Under the pieces are notes generated by a model that saw nothing but the letters and a program-made list of their open reading frames with translations, searched no databases and was not told the DNA's origin. Shown in pieces: positions 4,984-28,433 of a stretch of DNA of 31,075 bases. How positions within the stretch are numbered: the first letter of the stretch is position 1; each line of letters starts with the position of its first letter. The position numbers and the translations under genes were made by a program. Origin of the DNA: a virus (taxonomy: Duplodnaviria > Caudoviricetes); IMG/VR virus record IMGVR_UViG_3300042564_000331, positions 1 through 31,075 of that record; one strand, written 5' to 3'.

Positions 4984-5544
4984 ATGACCCTTACGCCGAG
5001 AAAGAAGCGGAACTACGTCAACAACGCCGAGTTCCTTGAAGCCATGATCAAGTACAAAAAGGCTGTACGAGAAGCAGAGGACAGTGGAGAAGAACCTCCA
5101 CGCATTCCAAACTATATTGGTGAATGCCTCTATCAGATCGCTAACCGATTAGCATACAAACCAAACTTCATTAACTACACCTATCGTGATGACATGATTG
5201 CCGACGGCTTAGAAAACGCTATCATGTGTGTGAACAATTTTGATCCAGAGAAGTCGAGCAATCCATTTGCGTACTTTACTCAGGTCATTTGGTTCGCATT
5301 CATCCGTCGTATCCATAAGGAAAAGAAGCAAACCTATATCCGCCATAAAGTTATGGAGAATTCACTTATCTCTGATACTGCATTTGAACGTGGTGTCGAT
5401 AGTGACTTCAACGCGGCTTCTATGCGAGAAATGAGTAACGATCGTATGAATGACTTCGTTGAAAAATATGAAGCAAACATTGAGAGCAAAAAGAAACCAG
5501 CCGCTAAGAAAAAAGGGTTGGAGAAGTTCATGGGTGAAGAATGA
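4984..5544 (+). CDS. gp55: Late transcription sigma factor
   Basis: NYVNNAEF, IPNYIGEC, PNFINYTYRDDMI-DG-EN and NPFAYFTQ-IWFAF-RRI-KEKKQ motifs. Confidence 0.97.
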   Translation: MTLTPRKKRNYVNNAEFLEAMIKYKKAVREAEDSGEEPPRIPNYIGECLYQIANRLAYKPNFINYTYRDDMIADGLENAIMCVNNFDPEKSSNPFAYFTQVIWFAFIRRIHKEKKQTYIRHKVMENSLISDTAFERGVDSDFNAASMREMSNDRMNDFVEKYEANIESKKKPAAKKKGLEKFMGEE

Positions 5545-6602: not shown

Positions 6603-8311
6603 TGTTAACATTTACCCAAGTAAAATACAAAAACATTCTATCGACAGGTAATGCTTGGACTACTATTGAGCTCAACCGTAACAAAAGTACTTTGATCGTT
6701 GGCGAGAATGGTGCAGGAAAGTCAACCATTCTCGATGCAATTTCGTTTGCGTTGTACGGTAAAGCATTCCGTAAGATCAACAAACCTCAGTTGATGAACT
6801 CTATCAACCAGAGAGATCTTTCTGTTGAAGTTTACTTTAACTCGAATGGTGCTGAGTTCATTATCAAGCGTGGGATGAAGCCAAATCTCTTTGAGATCTG
6901 GAAGAACGGTGAGTTACTCAACCAAGATGCATCTGCTCGTGACTACCAAGCTTATCTTGAAGATAACATTCTCAAGATGAACTACAAGTCATTTGGTCAA
7001 GTTGTTGTCCTTGGTAGTTCTACGTTTGTCCCCTTCATGCAACTTCCGGCTCAACACCGTCGTGAGGTGATCGAAGACCTTCTTGATATTCAGATCTTCA
7101 GTACAATGAATAACCTTCTCAAAGAAAAGGTGAACACAAACAAAGCTGACCTGATGCAGATCAAATACGATGTTGATCTTGTAAAGACAAAAATCGATTC
7201 TGCGAAAGAACATAACGAGTCTATTCGTAAACTCAAGGAAAGTGAAGTAACTCGTATTAAAGATAAGATGCGAGAACGTATCGAGTTTATCGAAGGCGAA
7301 GAAAGCAGAGCAGAAGAACTCGAAGAGCAAATAACGTCTCTTATCAGTACAGTTTCTGATAAAGCTGAAGCGTCTAGCAAACTTCAGCAGTTTAAGACTC
7401 TCAGAGGCGATCTGAATACGAAGCTTGGTACTCTTCATAAAGATGTCAAGTTTTATCATGCACACGACAATTGTCCTACGTGCCGGCAAGGAATTGAACA
7501 CGACTTTAAAGCATCGACCATCAACGAAAAGTCTGGAAAAATTTCTGAGATCGAAAACGCGATTCTTGTTCTTGACGAAAAGGCAACGAAAGTTGAAGAA
7601 CGGCTGTCGAATATTGCCAATACCGAGACTGAAATACATAAACTCAGTCTCGCACGGAATGAGCACGCTGCAAACATACGAATCGCAAAGTCGACGATCG
7701 TTGGCCTCAAAAATGAACTTGACGAAGCAGAAAAGAACGTGGCTGAAATCGATACGAGTAAGATAGCTTCGTATAAAGAAGAGCTCCGTATTCTTATGGA
7801 AAACGCAAAGATTCTTTCCGAAGACAAAGAGACTCTTGCTGTTGTTGGGTCTATGTTGAAAGATGGTGGTATCAAGACTCGTATCATTAAGCAGTATGTT
7901 CCAATCATGAATAAGTTGATCAATAAATATCTCGCTGCAATGGAGTTCTTTGTTGACTTTCAGCTTGATGAAAGCTTTAACGAGAAGATCTTGTCTCGTT
8001 TCCGTGATGAGTTCTCTTACGCATCCTTCAGTGAAGGTGAGAAGCTTCGTATTGACTTGGCCCTAATGTTCACCTGGAGAGCGGTGTCTAAACTTCGTAA
8101 CTCAGTGACTACGAACCTGTTGATTATGGACGAAGTTCTTGATGGTTCTCTTGACCAAGCTGGTACAGATGAGTTCCTGAAGATCGTCAACGAGATCACT
8201 GCTGACTCGAACGTCTTTATCATTAGCCACAAAGGTGACTCTCTTCACGATAAGTTTGATCATGTGATTAAGTTTGAAAAGAAAAAGAACTTTAGCCAAA
8301 TAGCAGCATGA
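6602..8311 (+). CDS. gp46: Recombination endonuclease ATPase subunit (Rad50/SbcC-like)
   Basis: GENGAGKST, coiled coil with CPTC zinc hook, FSEGEK signature, MDEVLDGSLD and ISH motifs. Confidence 0.97.
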   Translation: MLTFTQVKYKNILSTGNAWTTIELNRNKSTLIVGENGAGKSTILDAISFALYGKAFRKINKPQLMNSINQRDLSVEVYFNSNGAEFIIKRGMKPNLFEIWKNGELLNQDASARDYQAYLEDNILKMNYKSFGQVVVLGSSTFVPFMQLPAQHRREVIEDLLDIQIFSTMNNLLKEKVNTNKADLMQIKYDVDLVKTKIDSAKEHNESIRKLKESEVTRIKDKMRERIEFIEGEESRAEELEEQITSLISTVSDKAEASSKLQQFKTLRGDLNTKLGTLHKDVKFYHAHDNCPTCRQGIEHDFKASTINEKSGKISEIENAILVLDEKATKVEERLSNIANTETEIHKLSLARNEHAANIRIAKSTIVGLKNELDEAEKNVAEIDTSKIASYKEELRILMENAKILSEDKETLAVVGSMLKDGGIKTRIIKQYVPIMNKLINKYLAAMEFFVDFQLDESFNEKILSRFRDEFSYASFSEGEKLRIDLALMFTWRAVSKLRNSVTTNLLIMDEVLDGSLDQAGTDEFLKIVNEITADSNVFIISHKGDSLHDKFDHVIKFEKKKNFSQIAA

Positions 8312-10790: not shown

Positions 10791-11228
10791 ATGAAAGATG
10801 TAAAGCGATCAGCAGGTGAAATCGGAGAAGGTATCGTTTTTGAGTTCTTCAAAGACGCTAAGCGTACACATAATTGGTACGATGATAAGAAAGATGGCAC
10901 TATCAATGGGATGACGTATGAAGTTAAGACTATGCGTCTTAACCATGTGTCTCAGTCATTTTGGATTGATACTAAGCAATGGCCAAAGTGTGATGGCGTT
11001 GATCTACTCTTCTTTGTTAGAGTTCCTGAGAAGGAAGAAGATGGTATCACGTTGTACCTTAGCATCAATCATAAGAACAAGAAGTCTATGGCTTATCCGA
11101 GCGATGGGCGTGTTTGTCGCAAGTATCCATTGACAGAATGCATTCCATTGTGTATAATTAAAGATAACCGTGTTCAAGAATTACTTGAGCATTCGAAAGC
11201 ACTTTCCAAACATAAGAGGTTTGTATGA
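10791..11228 (+). CDS. Putative PD-(D/E)XK-fold nuclease-like protein
   Basis: G--GE helix, then D (KDGTING) and YEVKT, matching the E...D...E-x-K pattern. Confidence 0.5.
   Translation: MKDVKRSAGEIGEGIVFEFFKDAKRTHNWYDDKKDGTINGMTYEVKTMRLNHVSQSFWIDTKQWPKCDGVDLLFFVRVPEKEEDGITLYLSINHKNKKSMAYPSDGRVCRKYPLTECIPLCIIKDNRVQELLEHSKALSKHKRFV
11130..11158 (+). promoter_or_regulatory. Consensus sigma70 promoter inside CDS, upstream of the kinase-gp42 operon
   Basis: TTGACA(11130)-N17-TATAAT(11153), perfect consensus. Confidence 0.75.
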
Positions 11229-11788
11229 TTCTTATCATCGAAGGCATGGATCGTTGTGGTAAATCGACACTCGTCGAACAGCTGCGTAAACGGTATTTTC
11301 TCAATAACACTCGAGTTCTCGTCCATCACTCGTCGTCTCCGCCAAAGGTGGTTAATCCAAATGAGTGGGAAGTGCATCACTACAAGTCACTACTTGATGC
11401 GAGCTACATGCTGAACTATGCTCATGATTTTGACGTAATCTATGATCGCTTCCACCTCGGTGCTATTGTCTATGGCAAGAAGTATCGCAACGCAGATCCA
11501 GAAGACATCTATGCAATCGAAAACATGTACATCCATCCTAATGATGAGATTGCTCTCGTTCTTCTGACTGATCATACCTCTGCGATCCTTGAACGTGACG
11601 ACGATGACTCACTCGAATCGTCTGCTGAAGAGTTTGATGAAACCCGCGTAGCCTTTGAGCAAGCGTTTGCTAGGTCGATTATTCCAAACAAACTTCACAT
11701 CAATATTAGTGAGAATGGTGGCTTCATCAATACATATGATGCTGTTACTCAATTTCTTAACGGAGTCCGCAATGCAGAGAGTCAGTGA
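11225..11788 (+). CDS. Thymidylate-kinase-like dNMP kinase
   Basis: IIEGMDRCGKST P-loop and DRF motif; overlaps gp42. Confidence 0.85.
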   Translation: MILIIEGMDRCGKSTLVEQLRKRYFLNNTRVLVHHSSSPPKVVNPNEWEVHHYKSLLDASYMLNYAHDFDVIYDRFHLGAIVYGKKYRNADPEDIYAIENMYIHPNDEIALVLLTDHTSAILERDDDDSLESSAEEFDETRVAFEQAFARSIIPNKLHINISENGGFINTYDAVTQFLNGVRNAESQ

Positions 11789-12440
11789 TATCAGAGCTAA
11801 GCTCATTCAAAAATACAAAGACCAAGACTTTGTTGTTGATAAAACTGGTGTGAAGACGATCGAGGTGATCGGTGAGTCCTTCATTGCCGATGAAGACTGG
11901 ATCATTCGTAAACCGAATTACGAGTACATCGAGCGTGAGCTCGAGTGGTATAAGTCTCAGTCACTCTATGTTAAAGATATCCCAGGCGAGACTCCTGCTA
12001 TCTGGAATCAAGTTGCTTCCAAAGGTGGCCGCATCAACTCAAACTACGGATACCTCATTTGGTCGAATGAAAACTTCACCCAATACGAAAATGTTCGTAT
12101 TGAACTGATGAAGAACCCGAATAGTCGTCGTGCGGTTATGATCTATAATCGTCCTTCTATGCATCGTGATTATTGTGATGATGGTATGTCAGACTTCGTC
12201 TGCACATATGCAAACACTTTCATGATTCGTGATGGTAAACTCATCAGTCACTATCTAATGCGCTCGAATGACGCAGTGTTTGGTTATGACAACGACATTC
12301 ATTGGGCTATGCATGTTCAAGATATGCTTGCTCGTGATCTTGGTGTTGAATGTGGTGATATCATTTGGACTGCTACTAACCTTCATGTGTATGAACGTCA
12401 CTTTAAGTTTATCGAGGAGTTGATGAATGAACAGCCCTAA
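11772..12440 (+). CDS. gp42: dCMP hydroxymethylase (thymidylate synthase fold)
   Basis: Close to T4 gp42: DFVVDKTGVKTIE, RELEWYKS-SL-VKDIPGETP, INSNYG, DGMSDF-CT, MRSND-VFG--ND (Asp at the dCMP-specificity position), LHVY; start reassigned to ATG 11772 (GGAG RBS). Confidence 0.93.
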   Translation: MQRVSDIRAKLIQKYKDQDFVVDKTGVKTIEVIGESFIADEDWIIRKPNYEYIERELEWYKSQSLYVKDIPGETPAIWNQVASKGGRINSNYGYLIWSNENFTQYENVRIELMKNPNSRRAVMIYNRPSMHRDYCDDGMSDFVCTYANTFMIRDGKLISHYLMRSNDAVFGYDNDIHWAMHVQDMLARDLGVECGDIIWTATNLHVYERHFKFIEELMNEQP

Positions 12441-12876
12441 ATGGGATCACCGTTATCTTAAACTCGCTTATCAGATTGCTCAGTGGTCGAAAGATCCATC
12501 GAGTAAGATTGGCGCAGTCGCGGTTGGATCTAAAGGGCAAGTTTTGTCCCAAGGCTTCAATGGCTTTCCTCGCGGCTTGAAAGATGACTTCACTCGTTTG
12601 AACGATCGTGAACTGAAGTACAAATATGTTGTTCATGCTGAGATGAATACTATTTACAACGCCACGTATAATGGTGTATCATTAGATGGAGCAACTCTGT
12701 ATGTCTATGGCCTTCCGATCTGCTCTGAATGTGCTAAAGGTGTTATCCAAGTTGGAATCAAACGCGTTGTAATGCCAAAGCAGGAAATGCCAGAAAAGTG
12801 GCGTGATTCTTGGCTGACGAGCATGAACTTCTTTGATGAAGCTGGAGTTGACTTTGACTTCATTGAGTTTGCATAA
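12427..12876 (+). CDS. dCMP deaminase
   Basis: WSKDPS, GFNGFPRG, HAE and PIC-EC zinc motifs. Confidence 0.92.
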   Translation: MNSPKWDHRYLKLAYQIAQWSKDPSSKIGAVAVGSKGQVLSQGFNGFPRGLKDDFTRLNDRELKYKYVVHAEMNTIYNATYNGVSLDGATLYVYGLPICSECAKGVIQVGIKRVVMPKQEMPEKWRDSWLTSMNFFDEAGVDFDFIEFA

Positions 12877-12921
12877 ATATAGCACGCATTGAGTTTGCAT
12901 TATATTATGAAAGGTATATCC

Positions 12922-14166
12922 ATGAATAAAGTAGCCATCATCATGGCACGTGGTATCGAAGGTTGTGGTGTCACGAAGTATACTGTAGAACAGGTCAAGT
13001 GGCTTAAAGCTAATGGCTATCAGACTAAAGTGTATGCAGCAAAAGATAAGACGTTTTCCCGTAAGAACGCTCACGACCTAGGCGAAGTAGATCTATTCAA
13101 GTTTGCTGACAACGAACACATCAACCGCTTCATCGATGAGTGCAATCAGTCCGACTATATCTTTATTAACTCACTTCCAGCTCTTGGAAATCTTCGTGGT
13201 AAAGGTGCTGGCGACGAAGCAATCGACAACTGGATTAAAGCTCTTAAATCGTTTAAGAAGCCAGTGATTCTGATTCAGCACGATCATACCATCTATTCTA
13301 TCAAGCGTAACGCAGCACTTGACGAGGCGATTGATGCGGCCACATTGATCTTCGCCCACGCCCGCACGAATGACTTCTCCGACTACGTTAAGGAGAGAAA
13401 TGCTGGTGCATCGCTGATGTCTTTCTTTGGTGATGAAGAAGAGTCATCGAAAAAGATCTTGAACTTCCAGCCAGGACTTGACTTTGAGTTAAACCGTAAA
13501 CTGTACTGGAAAGATATTGCAGAGCAAGACGAGAAGCATCACAAGTGGATAGGTCGTTGTACCTCTTGGAAAGGTTTCGACCTCATGTTCCAGTGGCACA
13601 ATGGTTACCTTATGCCAAACGGACATCTTACTACATTCGAAGGTATCGAGAAATCGCCCGCGTTCATAGCCTTTAAAGAGTTGAGTGACTTCCATAATGA
13701 GATTAAATCTGACGCGGAAGGATTCAACCTAAGCAATCGCTATGGTGATAAGGCTTCTGTCTTTGGTCCATATGTTAACAACAAGTTACTTCACCGCATG
13801 TCACGCTCTGGTTTTGGTTATCAACTGTCTATTCTGAAACCAAAGTTCATTGAGAAGTCGATTGAGTATACTCATTGTGAAGTCGCTTCTGTTGGTACAG
13901 TCCCTGTGTTCCGTAAAGAGTATGGTGACGTCTGTGTTCATAGAGTCACAGGTGATCCTCTATCTAAATCAAAAGATAATTTTACTATTTGGCTTTCAAA
14001 AGAGAAGTCAGACATGGAAAATGCAATAAATACAGTCAAGAGACTCGCTACCGATCCAGTCCTACGTGATGAGTGGCGCGAAGGTGCATATGCTTTCTAC
14101 AAAGCTCACCAAAACTCTGAGCATGTATTTGAAGATCTTATGGAAAAAGTGAAGGATAACCTATGA
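12922..14166 (+). CDS. agt: DNA alpha-glucosyltransferase homolog (GT-B)
   Basis: Matches T4 Agt: MARG-EGCGVTK, AKDK-F-R, QHDH, NFQP, WIGR-T-WKGF, EG-E-SPAFIA, RMS-SGFGYQLS-L, EYTH-E, GT-PVF. Confidence 0.92.
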   Translation: MNKVAIIMARGIEGCGVTKYTVEQVKWLKANGYQTKVYAAKDKTFSRKNAHDLGEVDLFKFADNEHINRFIDECNQSDYIFINSLPALGNLRGKGAGDEAIDNWIKALKSFKKPVILIQHDHTIYSIKRNAALDEAIDAATLIFAHARTNDFSDYVKERNAGASLMSFFGDEEESSKKILNFQPGLDFELNRKLYWKDIAEQDEKHHKWIGRCTSWKGFDLMFQWHNGYLMPNGHLTTFEGIEKSPAFIAFKELSDFHNEIKSDAEGFNLSNRYGDKASVFGPYVNNKLLHRMSRSGFGYQLSILKPKFIEKSIEYTHCEVASVGTVPVFRKEYGDVCVHRVTGDPLSKSKDNFTIWLSKEKSDMENAINTVKRLATDPVLRDEWREGAYAFYKAHQNSEHVFEDLMEKVKDNL

Positions 14167-15362
14167 CATTTACGCATGCATCAATCGTTCCTCTCATCGG
14201 TGGTGAAACTATAGGTGCTGAGCGGGCATTTGGTCGCCGCCCAGAGTACATGATGTCGTATAAAGCTTTCGCTGCAAACGACGCTCACATCGTCAACCAT
14301 TATGGAAAAGACGTTCCTTACTACGTACTCGATGATGGTGGTAAACCTCATATGAACGTAGATGTAGTATCGTCTGTGTGCCCCTGCGCGGGCTTGAGTC
14401 AATTGTCCCATGGCTTTGGCGATCACAATGAGAACAACAAGTGGATGCGTATCACTACTGAGTATGTCCTTGGTGATCTGAAACCTCAAGTCTTGTGGGG
14501 TGAAAACGCTCCGGGCTTTGCTGGTAAGATTGGCGAGAATGTTCGTAATGAGTTGAAGGCAATTGGTAAGAAGAACGGCTACACCATGTCGGTCTATCGC
14601 ACTAAGACCCTTCTACATGGTGGTCCTCAGATTCGTGAACGTTCTTTCTACTTCTTCTGGAAAGGCGATAAGACCCCGCTTCTTCATTACTATAAACGGC
14701 CATACACCAAGATTGACGACGTTCTGCTTGGTATTAAATCAAACTATCAGATGGATGTGATCAACAAGAAGACTCCGTCGAAGGACGACCTCTATTACAA
14801 GTTCATCCTTGAAGAGATTCATGGTGGTATCACGCACCGTCAGTTCTCTGATATCGTTGAGCCGCAAAAGGTTCGCAATAGTGATGTCTTCTCGTATATC
14901 GAACGTATGGGCTACAACTATATGCAAGTCGCCGAGTGGATGGCTAAGAATGGTTATGAAAAAGAAGTTGAGAAGTGTAAGTATCGTCATGAGAAGCTTG
15001 GCCGCGGCGAAAATATCATGCGGCGGGGCACGATTATTCCAAAGGACTACATCGGCGCGTTTGTCGGTCACTATCCTACGATGTTGACTCATCCTCACGA
15101 AGATCGTTATATCACTTATCGTGAAGCTATGACAATCATGGGCTTACCTGAGAACTTTGAATTAGTCAATGCTTCTTCTAAAAATGCAAATCACATTTGT
15201 CAGAACGTTCCAGTACAAACCGCGACTGATATGGCAACTGAAGTTGTAGAATACCTTAAGGGTAATCGTTCTTTGGTTGACACAGATTACATTTTGCAGT
15301 ATAATCATACTCAGAAAGCAGAGTACTCTGCTAAAGAACAAACCTTGGAGAACTTCTTTTGA
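14163..15362 (+). CDS. C5-cytosine DNA methyltransferase-fold protein with atypical SAM motif
   Basis: Motif IV CPCAGLS, VI GENAP, VIII PQIRER, IX RYITYREA--IMGLP, X QNVPV; motif I reads VPLIGG rather than FxGxGG. Confidence 0.8.
   Translation: MTFTHASIVPLIGGETIGAERAFGRRPEYMMSYKAFAANDAHIVNHYGKDVPYYVLDDGGKPHMNVDVVSSVCPCAGLSQLSHGFGDHNENNKWMRITTEYVLGDLKPQVLWGENAPGFAGKIGENVRNELKAIGKKNGYTMSVYRTKTLLHGGPQIRERSFYFFWKGDKTPLLHYYKRPYTKIDDVLLGIKSNYQMDVINKKTPSKDDLYYKFILEEIHGGITHRQFSDIVEPQKVRNSDVFSYIERMGYNYMQVAEWMAKNGYEKEVEKCKYRHEKLGRGENIMRRGTIIPKDYIGAFVGHYPTMLTHPHEDRYITYREAMTIMGLPENFELVNASSKNANHICQNVPVQTATDMATEVVEYLKGNRSLVDTDYILQYNHTQKAEYSAKEQTLENFF
15277..15305 (+). promoter_or_regulatory. Consensus sigma70 promoter inside the MTase 3' end, upstream of dexA
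   Basis: TTGACA(15277)-N17-TATAAT(15300). Confidence 0.75.
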
Positions 15363-15997
15363 ACCAACACTTTATTATGGACTTTGAGACTCTTGGTCAA
15401 GATGTATTTGAAATCCCTATGCTTGATTGCGCTTATGTAGCATTTGACTGGGATCGTTTTACATCTGATAACCCCTACAGTCTTGAAGAAATCGTGGGTC
15501 TTGCTCGTAAAGACAAACTCGAGATGACGCATCAAGTTCGCGAACATGGTGCTAAATATGTTCAACGTGATCTTGATTGGTGGTTATCACAATCCGAAGA
15601 AGCAAAAAAGACTCTTAAGCCAAGTAAGTCTGACGTTCGTGTTGAAGTCTTTATCGATAATATCATTAATTACATGAGTGGTGTCGGTAAGATCAACTAT
15701 TGGTGGTCTCGTGCAAACACCTTCGATCCTATCATTCTTCAGCGTTGGGCTAAAATCGTCGGACGAAAAGATGAGATCGAAGAACTCTTGAAGTTCTGGA
15801 CAGTACGTGACACCCGTACATGGATCGACGCCAAGCTTAATTTCCCTAAGAAGAATGGTTTTATTCCTCTCGCCGATGAAGAGTATTGGAACAAAACCTT
15901 TGTACACCATGATAGCCGATTCGATATCGCTGCAGACATCCTTCGTTTACAGACCATCGCTCGGCTCGAAAACGATATGGAGCAACCTGCACGATGA
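15359..15997 (+). CDS. dexA: DexA-like 3'-5' exonuclease (DEDD)
   Basis: FIMDFETLG, WWLSQS-EA, WSR--FD-IL, KFW--RD-RT and HDS-FD-A-D motifs as in T4 DexA; TTG start. Confidence 0.85.
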   Translation: MNQHFIMDFETLGQDVFEIPMLDCAYVAFDWDRFTSDNPYSLEEIVGLARKDKLEMTHQVREHGAKYVQRDLDWWLSQSEEAKKTLKPSKSDVRVEVFIDNIINYMSGVGKINYWWSRANTFDPIILQRWAKIVGRKDEIEELLKFWTVRDTRTWIDAKLNFPKKNGFIPLADEEYWNKTFVHHDSRFDIAADILRLQTIARLENDMEQPAR

Positions 15998-16413
15998 GTA
16001 CGAACGATCCAAAGGTTGGAGGAATGCGAGAAGCACTTGGTATGCCATACGCCCGCCATATTCCGCTTGAAGCAATTGCTGCAGCTGCTGCTTCTCTTGA
16101 GTATGGCGCTAAGAAGTATGCTGACCGCAATTGGGAAAAGGGTCTTCCGTGGCAGCAGATGATCGATAGCCTGAAACGTCATGTTGAAGACTTTGAACGT
16201 GGTCGTGATTATGATGATGGCCCAGATGGATCTGACCTTCATCAAGTCTGCATGATCATGGCTTCCGCTATGATGTTGTCTGCTTCAGTTATTCGTGAAA
16301 TCGGTGTAGATGATAGACTTCCTCCTGTAGATGAAAAAGCTTTATCTGCTAAAGAATGCGCAAAGTTTATCAAAGGCCAACTTGAAAATTCTAGACCAGT
16401 GAAAGGTAAATAA
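15994..16413 (+). CDS. DUF5664-like dNTP diphosphohydrolase domain protein
   Basis: YGAKKY--RNWEKG, SL-RH and D--S-L-H motifs of the DUF5664 (dATP/dGTP diphosphohydrolase) family. Confidence 0.75.
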   Translation: MSTNDPKVGGMREALGMPYARHIPLEAIAAAAASLEYGAKKYADRNWEKGLPWQQMIDSLKRHVEDFERGRDYDDGPDGSDLHQVCMIMASAMMLSASVIREIGVDDRLPPVDEKALSAKECAKFIKGQLENSRPVKGK

Positions 16414-17345
16414 TGGAAATCAAAATAGAAATCGAAAAGCTGAGAAAGAAAAAGCTCTTTATTGCCACGCCTATGTATGGTGGACAATGCGCTGGATTGT
16501 ATACTAAATCGACCAATGACCTAGCTATGAGCTGTGCTAAGTACGACATCGATGTAAAATTCTACTACTTGTTCAACGAGTCGCTTATCACTCGTGCCCG
16601 TAATTATTGTGTAGATGAGTTTCTTCGTTCCGACTATACTCATCTTATGTTTATTGACTCCGATATTGGATTCCATTATAAGGATGTATATACTCTTATG
16701 CATCTTTGTGAGTCTACCGATGAATACGGCGTGATCACTGGTGCTTACCCAAAGAAGACTATTGCTTGGGAAAAGATTCGTACTGCGGTTGAAATGGGAT
16801 TTGCCGATCCAAATCCATTCCAACTGGAAAACTTTGTAGGCGATTACGTCTTTAATCCAGATGAAAACACTACGTCTTTTAGAATTGATGAACCAGTGAA
16901 GATCCGTGAAGGCGGTACTGGTTTTATGATGATTCATCGCAGTGTGTTTGAGAAATACAGTAAAGCTTATCCTGAGCTAAGCTATATTCCTGATCATGTT
17001 CGCACTGAGCATTTTGATGGTAGCCGCGAAATCACTGCTTTCTTTGACTGTGTTATTGATCCTAAGAGTAAACGGTATCTTTCTGAAGACTACATGTTTA
17101 GCCAATACGCTCGAGCAATTGGTATTAACGTATGGCTCTGCCCATGGATCCAGTTGAAGCATGTTGGATCTTATACGTTTGGTGGTTCACTCTCTGCAAT
17201 GGCTGCGATTCAATCGTCTCCTACTGCTAGTGCAGCATCAAATCAGAAAAATTATTTGACAGATTCACCAAAAGGTGATATACTGGACTCCGTACAACAA
17301 CCAAACCGCCAACAGCGGCGTGCTGCAATGAAAAAAGGTAAATGA
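16413..17345 (+). CDS. GT-A fold glycosyltransferase-like protein
   Basis: IATPMYGG, ESLITRARN, THLMFIDSDI (DxD), GTGFM-I-R and YLSEDY-F motifs. Confidence 0.8.
   Translation: MEIKIEIEKLRKKKLFIATPMYGGQCAGLYTKSTNDLAMSCAKYDIDVKFYYLFNESLITRARNYCVDEFLRSDYTHLMFIDSDIGFHYKDVYTLMHLCESTDEYGVITGAYPKKTIAWEKIRTAVEMGFADPNPFQLENFVGDYVFNPDENTTSFRIDEPVKIREGGTGFMMIHRSVFEKYSKAYPELSYIPDHVRTEHFDGSREITAFFDCVIDPKSKRYLSEDYMFSQYARAIGINVWLCPWIQLKHVGSYTFGGSLSAMAAIQSSPTASAASNQKNYLTDSPKGDILDSVQQPNRQQRRAAMKKGK
17256..17284 (+). promoter_or_regulatory. Sigma70 promoter inside the GT 3' end, upstream of gp45
   Basis: TTGACA(17256)-N17-TATACT(17279) with extended -10 TG. Confidence 0.75.
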
Positions 17346-24748: not shown

Positions 24749-26200
24749 ATGATCGAACAAACAATCTTAGCAGGTATGATTCATAATGAAGGTTATGTAA
24801 GAACGGTCTTGCCTTTTCTTAAAGATGAGTATTTTGAAGATCAAAACGAAAAGTTCATCTATACTACGATCAAGTCTTACATCGATGAATATAATGGATT
24901 GCCTACTCTCGCAGCTTTAAAGATTGCGATTGATGCATCAAATTCATTGAACGAAGAACGGTACAAACAAGTCAATACAACTCTTGATTCGTTGACTTAC
25001 GATGAAAAGACTGACATGACTTGGTTGGTCAATACTACTGAAAAGTTCTGCCAAGACAAAGCAATCTATAATGCAGTTCGACAATCAATCCTTGTTCTCG
25101 ATGGTAAGATTAAAGATCTTGATAAAGGTGCAATCCCAGAACTATTGAGTGATGCCCTTGGTGTAAGTTTTGACACGAACGTTGGTCACGACTTTCTTGA
25201 GAACGCAGATGATCGTTTCGACTTTTACCACCGAGTAGAAGAGAAGCTTGAGTTTGATCTTGAGTACTTCAATAAGATCACAAAAGGCGGTCTAAGCAAG
25301 AAGTCTCTGTCTGTCGCGCTTGCAGGCACAGGCGTGGGTAAGACCCTATTCATGACACATTGTGCGGCTGCATCGTTGTCTGCAGGTAAAAATGTTCTTT
25401 ACATCACCATGGAAATGGCTGAAGAACGAATCGCTGAACGTATTGACGCTAATCTTCTTGATGTAACTCTTGATGATCTTCGTCTACTTCCAAAGCCTAT
25501 CTACAACTCGAAGATCGCAAAGGTAAAGGCAAGAACCGTAGGTAAACTTATCGTTAAAGAATATCCCACGAGTTCTGCAGGCGCGAACCACTTCCGCCAT
25601 CTATTGAATGAGTTGAAGCTAAAGAAGAACTTTGTGCCTGACGTAATCTTTATCGATTACTTAAACATCTGTATGAGTGCTCGGTTGAAGCATGGTGCTA
25701 ACATGAACTCATACATGATGATTAAGGCTATCGCAGAAGAACTTCGTGGTCTTGCGATGGAGTTCAACGTTCCAGTCATGACTGCGACTCAAACTACACG
25801 TTCTGGTTATGGTAACTCAGATGTTGAGTTGACTGATACATCGGAATCGTTTGGTCTACCGGCAACAGCCGACTTCATGTTTGCTCTCATTTCAACTGAA
25901 GAACATGAGAAGCGCGGTCAACTTCTCGTCAAGCAACTTAAGAACCGTTGGGGTAGTGTTGATAGCCCGAAGCGATTTGTAGTTGGCATCGATCGCTCAA
26001 AGATGCGTTTGTTTGATGCTGAAGAGTCTGCTCAAGAAGGTATCACTGGTGGGCCAAAGCAGCTTGAGCAACAAGATAGACCTATATTTGATGGTTCTTC
26101 TATGGTGCAAGACTCAGACTTTCAACCAGATCATGACTTTGAACCACAGCGACTAAGCAGCTTTAAGAAAAAGAAACCAAATTTTGGAGGGTTTAACTGA
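24749..26200 (+). CDS. gp41: Replicative DnaB-like helicase
   Basis: EKFCQDKA-YNA, LAGTGVGKT, YITMEMAEERIAERIDAN, IDYLNIC, ATQTTRSG, SESFGLPATAD and KQLKNR motifs. Confidence 0.97.
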   Translation: MIEQTILAGMIHNEGYVRTVLPFLKDEYFEDQNEKFIYTTIKSYIDEYNGLPTLAALKIAIDASNSLNEERYKQVNTTLDSLTYDEKTDMTWLVNTTEKFCQDKAIYNAVRQSILVLDGKIKDLDKGAIPELLSDALGVSFDTNVGHDFLENADDRFDFYHRVEEKLEFDLEYFNKITKGGLSKKSLSVALAGTGVGKTLFMTHCAAASLSAGKNVLYITMEMAEERIAERIDANLLDVTLDDLRLLPKPIYNSKIAKVKARTVGKLIVKEYPTSSAGANHFRHLLNELKLKKNFVPDVIFIDYLNICMSARLKHGANMNSYMMIKAIAEELRGLAMEFNVPVMTATQTTRSGYGNSDVELTDTSESFGLPATADFMFALISTEEHEKRGQLLVKQLKNRWGSVDSPKRFVVGIDRSKMRLFDAEESAQEGITGGPKQLEQQDRPIFDGSSMVQDSDFQPDHDFEPQRLSSFKKKKPNFGGFN

Positions 26201-26201
26201 G

Positions 26202-26411
26202 ATGGGTTACCGCGTAAATGAAAACAACAACTCGTTCGAGATCGTTGAAAAAGGATCCGAATTGGTTGTAGCTCGCAGAAATGATAAGGATGCAGCAACG
26301 AAACTTTGCCGTTCGTTGAACTTAGGGTCTGGGTTTGATGGATTCACTCCACCGTTCTTTACCTTGAAGTATCCAGATGATCATGCAAAAGGAAATACCG
26401 CTCAAACTTAA
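26202..26411 (+). CDS. Small conserved hypothetical protein downstream of gp41
   Basis: LNLGSGFDGFTP-FF motif; GGAGG upstream. Confidence 0.7.
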   Translation: MGYRVNENNNSFEIVEKGSELVVARRNDKDAATKLCRSLNLGSGFDGFTPPFFTLKYPDDHAKGNTAQT

Positions 26412-26425
26412 TTGAGCGGTATTTC
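26386..26425 (-). terminator. Terminator hairpin, oriented for the minus strand and possibly bidirectional
   Basis: 14-bp stem GAAATACCGCTCAA/TTGAGCGGTATTTC (26392-26425) followed by CTTTTG on the minus strand. Confidence 0.75.
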
Positions 26426-26557
26426 ACCGTGCACGATACGTGAATGTTGGGCGGAACCCCACCGGCATTCTTGATGCGACCCCAACTGTTCCATCTGTGA
26501 TTTTGTATGCTATCACACTTGCCTCTACGTTAATTAACGTGATTACACGCACCCATA
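26386..26557 (-). ncRNA. Candidate structured late ncRNA (~170 nt)
   Basis: Bounded by a minus-strand TATAAATA (26569-26562) and a terminator; several complementary helices including a pseudoknot; no convincing ORF. Confidence 0.55.
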
Positions 26558-26561
26558 CGAT

Positions 26562-26569
26562 TATTTATA
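26562..26569 (-). promoter_or_regulatory. Late promoter on the minus strand
   Basis: TATTTATA on + equals TATAAATA on -, intergenic. Confidence 0.7.
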
Positions 26570-26589
26570 CAAAAAGTGTGCTCGGGCTA

Positions 26590-26617
26590 TTGACATTACT
26601 AAAAAAATGTTTATATT
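26590..26617 (+). promoter_or_regulatory. Early promoter
   Basis: TTGACA(26590)-N16-TATATT; upstream AAAAAGTG; leader AGCAAAGGTAGA similar to that at 10076. Confidence 0.6.
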
Positions 26618-26649
26618 ACTACTATAAGCAGAGCAAAGGTAGAACAACC

Positions 26650-26868
26650 ATGATGACCTTCGAACAGACCGGAACCGTCTTCACCGCCACCAACTCGATC
26701 AAACCGGTGATTATCAACAAAAACCATGCCAACCAATACATGCTCTTCACCCCCGAAGGTCGTCTACTCGACAACTTCACCTCCGCTGGTCCTTTCGTAG
26801 ACTTCGAATCGGCTAAGCGTAACGCAGAATGCAACGTCGGTATGGCAATGAACTGGAGTGACTTCTAA
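26650..26868 (+). CDS. Hypothetical early protein (72 aa)
   Basis: Start reassigned to ATG 26650 after AAGG RBS and promoter; strong C-ending codon bias. Confidence 0.7.
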   Translation: MMTFEQTGTVFTATNSIKPVIINKNHANQYMLFTPEGRLLDNFTSAGPFVDFESAKRNAECNVGMAMNWSDF

Positions 26869-26927
26869 TGACTGCTTTAATCATCCCCGTTATCTTTTTA
26901 ATTGTAATCGTGTTTGGCCTTCTTTGA
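26868..26927 (+). CDS. 19-aa hydrophobic micropeptide
   Basis: MTALIIPVIFLIVIVFGLL; TAATG coupling to the upstream ORF; stop abuts the next RBS. Confidence 0.5.
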   Translation: MTALIIPVIFLIVIVFGLL

Positions 26928-26939
26928 GGAAACGAACTA

Positions 26940-27605
26940 ATGGTCAATGTCTATCCAATCACTGGCAAAGTATGGTATCGCGAAAGCACAGATGAGTGGG
27001 TGCTAGAGCTGGAAGGCTCTATCAATGATACCCACTTCATTAGTCGCCACACCGAACCTGGTAACATTGCTCCAGAAGATGTTGCAGGACTACCTTCGCT
27101 GTATAAAGAGGAAACAAAACTAATGACTGACGAAGAACTGATCGCACGGCTGCGGGACTTGGATACTTGGGTTGAAACTGCCGATGTGCCTGACCTTGCC
27201 GCCGACCGCATCGAAGCCCTTGAAAAGGCCCTAAAGGATCAATCTTCTGTCTCTGATCGACTTGCTGAAAGGCTGCACAAGACCGAAGGTCTCTTGGCAA
27301 AGGCGGTGGAGGATCGGGATCACTGGTCGGATGTCGCTCGCCGAGAGGGTGTGTGCATGACCTGTCGCGGTCCCCACGGCGCACTAGAGTCGTATGGCTG
27401 CACGGATTGCCTGAACACTGGTTATTGTGGAGAACACCACAACACCGTGGCTGACCTCGAGGCCAATCTGGCGAAGGCGGTGGAGGCTTTGCGTTTTTAC
27501 GCATGGGAGAACGAGATAAGACTACCTAGCGACGGCCCGTGGGGTGCAGGCAGCACGGATTTCGGCAAGGCCGCCCGCACCATCCTCGCAGAGATCAAAG
27601 GGTAG
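26940..27605 (+). CDS. Mosaic hypothetical protein (LIARLR...AADRIEALE module, CxxC zinc module)
   Basis: GAGG RBS; second in-frame RBS+ATG at 27123; 3' part visibly more GC-rich. Confidence 0.7.
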   Translation: MVNVYPITGKVWYRESTDEWVLELEGSINDTHFISRHTEPGNIAPEDVAGLPSLYKEETKLMTDEELIARLRDLDTWVETADVPDLAADRIEALEKALKDQSSVSDRLAERLHKTEGLLAKAVEDRDHWSDVARREGVCMTCRGPHGALESYGCTDCLNTGYCGEHHNTVADLEANLAKAVEALRFYAWENEIRLPSDGPWGAGSTDFGKAARTILAEIKG

Positions 27606-27609
27606 TGCC

Positions 27610-27711
27610 ATGAAGACTTGCCCACCATGCAATAACGATTGTAATCAGGGCCGTGATTGCCCACAACGCAAACCGAAGGATGCTTCAACAAAAATTCAAC
27701 AAACCAGTTGA
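27610..27711 (+). CDS. 33-aa cysteine-rich protein
   Basis: MKTCPPCNNDCNQGRDCPQRK...; CNQGRxCP motif recurring in small phage ORFs; AAGGG upstream. Confidence 0.6.
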   Translation: MKTCPPCNNDCNQGRDCPQRKPKDASTKIQQTS

Positions 27712-27736
27712 CATTTGGTTCGAAGTAGCTTATATA
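27708..27736 (+). promoter_or_regulatory. Early promoter
   Basis: TTGACA(27708)-N17-TATATA(27731); -35 flanked by AACCA/TGGTT. Confidence 0.7.
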
Positions 27737-27764
27737 GATCTAGTAGAAGCAAAGAGGAAAAGCC

Positions 27765-27938
27765 ATGCTACTCGATACGTCTGTTACCGTCGGCCAAAAC
27801 GTTCGTGCGTTCCTCAATAAGAACGCACGTGGAAAGGTTGTCGCAGCCAACGGTTCGCTGTTGACAGTTCAGTGGGAAGGTGGTAATATTGTAGAAGTTA
27901 ATCGGTTCAGCGTTATCGTCATGAAACCTGGGTACTAA
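27765..27938 (+). CDS. Small beta-rich hypothetical protein (57 aa, SH3/Tudor-like pattern)
   Basis: GAGG RBS; VGQNVR...GKVV...LTVQWEGG--VEV. Confidence 0.65.
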   Translation: MLLDTSVTVGQNVRAFLNKNARGKVVAANGSLLTVQWEGGNIVEVNRFSVIVMKPGY

Positions 27939-27948
27939 GGAGCAACGA

Positions 27949-28113
27949 ATGCAAACTGTACGTGAACTTATCGAAGAAGCTATCACAGAAGCTCGCATCA
28001 TGGAGGCTGCTCGAGAAGTATTCGATGTAGATAACATGCTGCTCACCGCAATGCGCTTGAGTGGTGCACCGTATTCCTTTGTCGAAACTGTATACGAGCG
28101 AGCATCAGCATGA
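27949..28113 (+). CDS. Small hypothetical protein (54 aa)
   Basis: AAGGAG RBS; MQTVRELIEEAITEARIMEAAREVF...; ATGA overlap with the next ORF. Confidence 0.65.
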   Translation: MQTVRELIEEAITEARIMEAAREVFDVDNMLLTAMRLSGAPYSFVETVYERASA

Positions 28114-28433
28114 ACTACTTTGGAGCTACATACACCAAAAGTCGTGATCCTACTGATATCTACTATAAACGTATTCTTGAGATGATGCGTGATTACAATT
28201 TAACAATGCAAGATGCGATCAACTGGGATATGGATGGCTTTATGCCATACCCTTCTCGTGGAATGATTCTTACTGATGAAGAAGAGATTGACTTTTATCT
28301 TCACTTAAATTATATTCCAGCTGATAGCCGTACGTTTTTCACAGGAGTCGCCCTTGGCTTTTATGACTATACACTCGAAGACAAAGAAGAGGAAACCGAC
28401 CAAGAGGATGATCGAAGCACAAGCACGCCATGA
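28110..28433 (+). CDS. Hypothetical protein
   Basis: 107 aa, ATGA-coupled to the upstream ORF. Confidence 0.6.
   Translation: MNYFGATYTKSRDPTDIYYKRILEMMRDYNLTMQDAINWDMDGFMPYPSRGMILTDEEEIDFYLHLNYIPADSRTFFTGVALGFYDYTLEDKEEETDQEDDRSTSTP

Follow-up and report, generated by a model that had tools for sequence, protein, structure and literature searches.

Covariation supports a stand-alone structured RNA gene adjoining gp41 in uncultured T4-like phages

Introduction

What is encoded on the minus strand beyond the helicase gene gp41 of an uncultured T4-like phage: a structured RNA, an antisense regulator or a short peptide? The question arises from a 31,075-nt stretch of DNA (IMG/VR record IMGVR_UViG_3300042564_000331; hereafter, the window), a 31-kb piece of a T4-like phage that encodes the major head protein, gp55, recombination nuclease subunits, the clamp and its loaders, RegA, Hsp20, DNA polymerase, UvsX, and the gp41 helicase, the last being approximately 60% identical to those of the nearest cultured phages. 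The original prediction proposed a late, pseudoknotted antisense RNA at this locus and, as an alternative, a 30-residue peptide. The relevant features are as follows.

4984-5544: gp55 late sigma factor, on the same contig as the RNA
24749-26200, plus strand: gp41 replicative helicase (phrog_19, E 1.5e-124), the constant neighbour of the RNA by synteny
26202-26411, plus strand: conserved gene for a 69-residue protein, located between gp41 and the RNA, with its stop codon inside the terminator loop
26386-26425, minus strand: intrinsic terminator (terminator scan), 14-bp stem 26425-26392 and U tract
26390-26556, minus strand: whole RNA, 167 nt, predicted +1 to terminator U tract (promoter spacing; RNA contig of a near relative)
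26562-26569, minus strand: T4-type late promoter box TATAAATA
26590-26868, plus strand: sigma-70-type promoter (26590-26617) and 71-residue ORF from ATG 26653, divergent and outside the RNA unit

Results

Transcription unit and homologues

The predicted late promoter box was found at 26569-26562. Of the seven copies of TATAAATA in the window (1.2 expected), it is the only one on the minus strand. The +1 position was placed by what we take to be the T4 rule of promoter spacing, and the predicted 14-bp terminator was located at 26425-26392 with its U tract. An RNA of approximately 170 nt followed by a terminator had been proposed; this size fits the whole unit, which includes the terminator, and the structured body is approximately 125 nt. 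Judging from its promoter, the RNA is likely made late in infection.

The elements of the structured body, all on the minus strand, are listed below.

26546-26552: P1 5′ strand, closing helix, pairing with 26442-26436
26527-26540: P2 hairpin with variable loop
26518-26526: J2/3 linker AGAGGCAAG with the conserved core G-H-G-G-C-A
26496-26517: P3 hairpin, length-variable, 87% paired; two-sided changes in 3 of 5 pairs
26487-26492: J3/4 linker GGAA-N-(A/U)
26481-26486: P4 5′ strand, 6 bp, pairing with 26451-26446; two-sided changes in 6 of 6 pairs
26465-26477: P5 hairpin, optional, covarying where present
26452-26464: P6, 3-bp stem CGG/CCG with two-sided changes in 3 of 3 pairs, and the invariant 7-nt loop UGGGGUU (26461-26455)

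Homologues were collected with several scans. A scan of viral contigs that fixed only the promoter and the 5′ strand of P1 yielded 118 loci in 47 of 64 database parts; 103 of them (plus the window) held the inner motifs, one was cut off and 14 were unrelated, and the members comprised 57 unique sequences. Scans for the inner motifs returned 119 viral and 120 metagenome loci, many of which were chance matches, and the promoter core was present in all 26 metagenome matches with correct P4 and P6 pairing. The combined set held 100 unique promoter-bearing copies, 65 of them at <90% identity. After removal of L470, which showed neither pairing nor a model match, 64 representatives were used for the counts. 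Short, diverged forms were contributed by a later scan (69 loci, 52 unique), and a relaxed definition gave 138 unique matches, 134 with the canonical loop and four in another register. A loose promoter-anchored scan returned approximately 28,000 stretches, mostly by chance, and none of the 100 loci scored from it matched the model. Overall, more than 100 distinct, strongly covarying homologues were found in viral and metagenome contigs.

The full box TATAAATA was present in 57 of the 64 representatives, all of which had been selected for the TAAATA core; this core also occurred in 51 of 52 unique loci from the scan without a promoter term. A terminator-like hairpin was found in 61 of 64 representatives.

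Secondary structure and covariation

In the family, P1 closes a four-way junction composed of the P2 hairpin, the linker (A)GHGGCA, the P3 hairpin, the linker GGAA-N-(A/U), and P4, which carries the optional P5 hairpin and P6. Covariation was assessed on A1, a MAFFT alignment that had not been fitted to the structure. Pairing was intact in 95% of 1639 cells, compared with 25-54% for slid partners, and two-sided changes were observed in 19 of 29 pairs, including 4 of 5 in P2. P1 showed none on A1, in which the search pattern had fixed its 5′ strand. The model-fitted alignment is biased towards the structure; on it, all 29 pairs showed two-sided changes, among them six of six in P1. RNAalifold, applied to 63 more diverse copies, predicted P4 and P6 unaided, with two-sided changes in 9 of 9 pairs. 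Furthermore, G-U pairs swapped with G-C and A-U pairs across the family, as they would in RNA. Covariation in homologues, through which the original prediction could be judged, was therefore strong on alignments not fitted to the structure.

The unpaired letters were likewise conserved. In the scan that left the linker free, 51 of 52 unique loci had the J2/3 core (GAGGCA in 32, GUGGCA in 14, and GCGGCA in 5), and GGAA occurred in all 57 sequences not selected for it. The loop letters UGGGG occurred in 57 of 57 unique sequences from the promoter and P1 scan, whose member filter required [TG]GGGGTT (the 14 dropped loci had neither inner motif), and the loop ended in UU in 69 of 69 when its last two letters were left free. 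About 16 invariant unpaired letters are thus carried on a freely covarying helix scaffold, and the unit is under selection for its structure and for these letters. Length varied elsewhere: the P3 spacer is 13-37 nt, and the linker in the P5 region was long in 72 and short in 66 of the 138 matches. The natural minimal form is approximately 100 nt. P2 is variable apart from a CUGC loop shared by many members that are co-directional with gp41 (L136, L236, L276, L288, L291, L293, L694, and others).

Most of the helices proposed from the window alone were confirmed. The closing helix, the palindromic hairpin, and the UGUGAU/AUCACA and GCAU/AUGC hairpins all lie where they had been predicted, and the GUUGGG/CCCAAC helix corresponds to P4, which is real by covariation. 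The pseudoknot in A-B-A′-B′ order was refuted by covariation, as its other member failed: GGAAC/GUUCC is complementary in the window copy but not conserved, with two-sided changes in 0 of 5 pairs and with three pairs disrupted in 16, 11, and 11 of the 57 sequences. This helix is false because its CC forms the 3′ strand of P6. Among its pairs, two A-U contacts are kept in 57 of 57 sequences, an invariance on which covariation has no say. The proposed linker CGGUGGG also had to be redrawn, since its CGG belongs to the P6 stem (covarying CGG/CCG around UGGGGUU). The RNA is not tRNA-like, as predicted: ARAGORN found no gene, and no Rfam tRNA or tmRNA model matched.

Single-sequence folding was rejected as evidence for the RNA. 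Compared with shuffles, z was −3.6 with the terminator and −0.2 without it; the core without the terminator folded no better than shuffles (86 of 200 as good).

Transcript evidence

A near relative is represented in metatranscriptome run X1 by a contig of 195 letters, which covered 26390-26556, exactly from the predicted +1 to the U tract, at depth 26, with three letters differing from the window and a 2-letter gap. The final 30 letters of this contig repeat the first 30, which hints at an assembly-graph loop joining the 3′ end of the RNA to its 5′ end. The join may represent a true circle, a concatemer, or a jump of reverse transcriptase; whichever its origin, it marks both predicted RNA ends. 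A second X1 contig runs on past the terminator at depth 8.7, and 26557-26654 had no cover in this run. X1 also contained, from a relative of L223, 106 letters of the RNA body flanked by adapter at either side; the neighbours of this RNA were without cover. This evidence consists of assembled contigs from one study, which cannot by themselves show ends, strand, or level, and it hints at a discrete transcript in one run. The RNA had no cover in runs X2, X4, and X6, nor did the L223 RNA body in X3, X4, and X6, except that one contig of X3 overlapped the 5′ end of the latter; such absence proves nothing. A search of 23 carrier records (two near complete) for a phage RNA ligase that could close a circle found none; its Rnl1 part was run without a positive control.

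The core of the original prediction, a stand-alone structured RNA of a T4-like phage with a late promoter and a terminator, is therefore borne out, with covariation and a hint of a transcript. We consider it almost certain that the locus is a stand-alone structured noncoding RNA gene of T4-like phages.

Peptide and antisense readings

The 30-residue peptide would require the RNA to be a short mRNA with a GTG start after a GAGG site. Its frame (26516-26427) is open in the window copy, yet it is unconserved in the family: the GTG start is kept in 28 of 64 representatives, the frame ends within one codon in 10 of 64, and the spacer lengths are spread over all three frames (36, 19, and 9). No Pfam or PHROG match was found for the frame, and a Shine-Dalgarno role of GAGG was rejected because this site varies to GUGG and GCGG. 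The peptide reading is refuted at the family level and hardly credible.

The antisense reading was examined by synteny. gp41 adjoins the RNA in all 50 representatives whose flank reaches it (the flanks of the 14 others were too short), and gp41 played no part in the detection of most copies. The two are convergent in 36 of the 50 and co-directional in 14. "Antisense" is thus not a property of the RNA, because it sits after gp41 in either orientation. Regulation of the gp41 transcript or of the 69-residue gene by antisense pairing would agree with the convergent arrangement in the window and in the 36 representatives, and with some read-through past the terminator in X1; however, the conserved RNA body overlaps no gene, and what is conserved is structure and not complementarity. 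Largely refuted by the co-directional clade, such regulation is very improbable.

Phylogenetic range

The RNA was present at 16 of 80 gp41 loci, and at 14 of 63 with at least 1 kb downstream. In a gp41 tree (81 rows from a quick search, short-flank non-carriers omitted), the two RNA orientations formed separate groups, and non-carriers were placed between and among the carrier groups. Five of five long records held one RNA copy each. When 12 gp41 loci of non-carriers were searched with the model unfiltered, no score exceeded 11.2 bits.

The model search detected the RNA in none of 11 cultured phages (the positive control was found), and the exact pattern with both models in none of five. blastn of four members against 50,697 phage records gave short chance matches or none; of two short matches examined, one was a promoter-region match and the other lay inside a coding gene. 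In the GTDB pattern scan (40 of 64 parts), the late promoter was present at 0 of 120 loci, and the best of the 100 loci scored reached 22 bits, compared with at least 38 for family members. The RNA is widespread in uncultured aquatic T4-like phages, and we infer an accessory role because close relatives lack it.

In the 99%-complete carrier genome G001, of whose 155 long ORFs 94 were scanned, we found 28 tRNA matches, a peptide deformylase, and a two-piece tmRNA of alphaproteobacterial type. These genes hint at an alphaproteobacterial host for that member only.

Three further loci were noted. The tmRNA of G001 is located at L759 18249-18599. In HTVC008M (L558 4386-4617), an unannotated 230-base gap after gp41 contains a late promoter box and no RNA copy. 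In L260, where the RNA is on the plus strand, gp41 is interrupted by approximately 770 bases (parts at 337-1014 and 1781-2341 from the RNA), possibly by an intron or intein.

The neighbouring 69-residue protein

The loci collected contained 80 distinct homologues of the 69-residue protein. Its predicted structure consists of three strands and one helix (pLDDT 88), and its C-terminal motif N-x-G-x-x-F-x-G-x-x-P-x-F is invariant. A fold search returned unnamed phage proteins only, with no named or RNA-binding fold, and tblastn against the 50,697 phage records gave short chance matches or none. The gene adjoins the RNA in 34 of 43 representatives with enough flank; at gp41 loci it was present in 9 of 14 with the RNA versus 12 of 54 without (Fisher p 0.007, uncorrected for kinship). 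It is a frequent but not obligatory neighbour, neither needed nor sufficient for the RNA. A weak, unannotated homologue was also seen in phiM12 (L561, about 6640-6820).

Comparison with known RNAs

The Rfam search envisaged in the original prediction matched no described family. Rfam 15 at the gathering threshold gave no match in the window, a loose search of 26300-26650 gave at best a terminator-driven 19.5 bits, 14 homologue loci had no match near the cut-off, and no Rfam match to self-cleaving ribozymes (hammerhead, HDV, twister, pistol, and hatchet) was obtained.

P6 resembles the P-loop of 23S rRNA (helix 80, E. coli 2246-2258), which also has a 3-bp stem and a 7-nt loop starting with UGGGG. 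E. coli 23S rRNA contains a single UGGGGNN enclosed by a 3-bp Watson-Crick stem, at U2249 in the P-loop; 160 of 2000 23S shuffles (8%) hold such a hairpin, and the comparison is post hoc. According to the part of the source consulted, G2251 and G2252 of the ribosomal P-loop pair with C75 and C74 of tRNA, respectively (PMC6337491). The loop ends in CG in E. coli but in UU in the phage RNA (69 of 69), and the P-loop lies in the ribosome, whereas the phage RNA is a free RNA with variable stem sequence. The family model showed no overall likeness to 23S rRNA, RNase P RNA, or T4 rnaC and rnaD (best 8.8 bits); against rrlB its best score was 5.7 bits, and no Rfam rRNA model matched. GHGGCA and GGAA resemble 23S 2046-2059 (8 of 2000 shuffles as good), a likeness that is doubtful because those letters, as we understand the 23S structure, lie in helix 73 and not in a linker.

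Bacterial RNase P RNA shares with the phage RNA a GAGG-N-AAG after a hairpin and a GGU able to pair with the tRNA 3′ end. The phage RNA is a third of its size, and the linker varies to GUGGCA and GCGGCA. No covarying 3′-end partner of the linker corresponding to the P4 pseudoknot of RNase P (conserved regions I and V) was found, the best model score being 4.4 bits. The rnaC and rnaD RNAs of T4 (species 1 and 2, of 139 and 119 nt) are likewise small, stable, and encoded by a T4-type phage; unlike the present RNA, they lie in the tRNA cluster and have none of its three motifs, and the family model found no match in T4. The pRNA of phi29 is likewise phage-encoded, with a core of approximately 120 nt within a transcript of approximately 170 nt; the part of the source consulted gives 174 nt in full, of which 120 nt are sufficient (PMC11476376). 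It is essential and limited to phi29-like phages, whereas this RNA is patchy among close relatives. No pRNA-type complementary loop pair was detected: the P2 and P3 loops are variable, and the P6 loop has no conserved complement.

GOLLD, ROOL, and raiA, as presented in the parts consulted of Weinberg 2017 (PMC5737381) and Fremin 2023 (PMC10690425), are likewise orphan multi-helix RNAs defined by covariation and with conserved unpaired letters, and GOLLD and ROOL may serve phages (PMC5737381). The present RNA differs in having no Rfam 15 match, in its size of approximately 125 nt, and in being tied to gp41 instead of tRNA genes. No description of it was found in the literature searched, mostly outside subscription journals. 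The parts of Weinberg 2017 (PMC5737381) covered held nothing on the RNA, the text and table parts and four supplements of Fremin 2023 (PMC10690425) gave no match, and the portion covered of a 2026 language-model preprint (10.64898/2026.10.21.760802) mentions neither T4-like phages nor gp41. The RNA may be one of the 8,495 unnamed DNA-virus candidates of Fremin 2023, judging from the parts of that paper searched (PMC10690425).

Discussion

The novelty of these results lies in an RNA class of uncultured T4-like phages, not in a demonstrated mechanism. To our knowledge, it is rare for a new RNA class to combine a multi-way junction with a dozen or more invariant unpaired letters, and earlier such classes proved to be ribozymes, riboswitches, or large RNA assemblies. 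Being small, with natural forms as short as about 100 nt, precisely predicted ends, and few invariant positions, the RNA can readily be made and tested in vitro.

The RNA presumably acts in trans, because nothing lies downstream within the unit. By analogy with the P-loop, we tentatively propose, as the best of several readings, that it acts on host translation. Made late, it would display a ribosome-P-loop-like hairpin, with GHGGCA and GGAA folding around P4 to hold the UGGGGUU loop in place. The Gs of this loop could then pair with C74 and C75 of tRNA, like ribosomal G2252 and G2251, and the RNA would thereby grip tRNA CCA ends or act as a decoy for a host factor that reads the P-loop. The P6 loop contains UGG and GGU, the complements of tRNA CCA and ACC, in what we regard as a parallel to T-box RNAs and RNase P. 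P6 matches the shape of the sole such hairpin in E. coli 23S rRNA, and the tRNA-rich carrier, with its 28 tRNA matches, tmRNA, and peptide deformylase, would suit a phage that intervenes in translation. However, the match is short and post hoc (8% of shuffles), a pure mimic would not need the invariant UU at loop positions 6-7, and no tRNA gene lies within the available flanks of the 64 representatives. The tRNA-rich context is unspecific, as tRNA-rich genomes are common among such phages. A bolder form, in which a free and possibly circular phage RNA copies the P-loop and captures tRNA 3′ ends, or the enzymes or defence nucleases that read the loop, and would thus be a minimal P-site mimic or a new class of tRNA-acting ribozyme, is unlikely. 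If the loop does grip tRNA ends, the RNA would give phages a new way of steering translation in the host and would serve as a natural model of the P-site of the ribosome.

The invariant UU would be accounted for if the three conserved segments formed a compact tertiary core, as in a ribozyme or in an aptamer serving as a free sponge for a small ligand. Two-pair contacts are conceivable between the loop UU and the AA of GGAA, and between the loop UG and the CA of GHGGCA. Invariant unpaired letters on covarying helices, of which this RNA has about 16, are typical of small ribozymes and aptamers, and the A-U contacts are present in all 57 sequences; being invariant, they give covariation nothing to say for or against pairing. 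Even at loose thresholds, the RNA matched no ribozyme or riboswitch of Rfam, there is no downstream gene to regulate, and the unbroken X1 contig from +1 to the terminator is a weak hint that the copies represented were not self-cleaved. We regard a compact core as rather unlikely, and place at a similar level a scaffold or sponge unrelated to the ribosome, with the 69-residue protein, a different phage protein, or a host protein involved in defence or regulation as its partner. The 69-residue gene, with its invariant C-terminal motif, stands beside the RNA in 34 of 43 representatives and is enriched at RNA-bearing gp41 loci, but nine of the 43 carriers lack it nearby, the gene occurs without the RNA at 12 gp41 loci, and the protein matched no RNA-binding fold. 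CsrA-type sponges are judged by the number of GGA motifs, and with a single GGA the RNA would be a poor one. A function in virion assembly or DNA replication, similar to phi29 pRNA or to an R-loop primer beside the helicase gene, would fit the late promoter, the pRNA-like size, the constant place after gp41, and the GGUU in the P6 loop. A packaged RNA is disfavoured because close relatives lack it, with 16 of 80 gp41 loci carrying the RNA and non-carriers nested among carriers, and none of the 11 cultured phages has it. In addition, no conserved complementary loop was found among the top covarying pairs, and the strong terminator would free a primer. This function is improbable.

Additional features of the window

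On the plus strand at 26590-28316, sigma-70-type promoters at 26590, 27861, and 28288 precede small genes without a Pfam match. These genes form a variable island between gp41 and a pair of genes for 360- and 409-residue (DUF6267) proteins, and some of them recur in relatives. At 10791-17345, genes for thymidylate kinase-like, thymidylate synthase-like, dCMP deaminase, glucosyltransferase-like, methyltransferase-like, and pyrophosphohydrolase proteins are clustered, likely as a pathway for DNA base hypermodification. The kinase-like (11225-11788) and synthase-like (11655-12440) frames overlap by approximately 130 bases as called, and the true start of the latter is probably further downstream.
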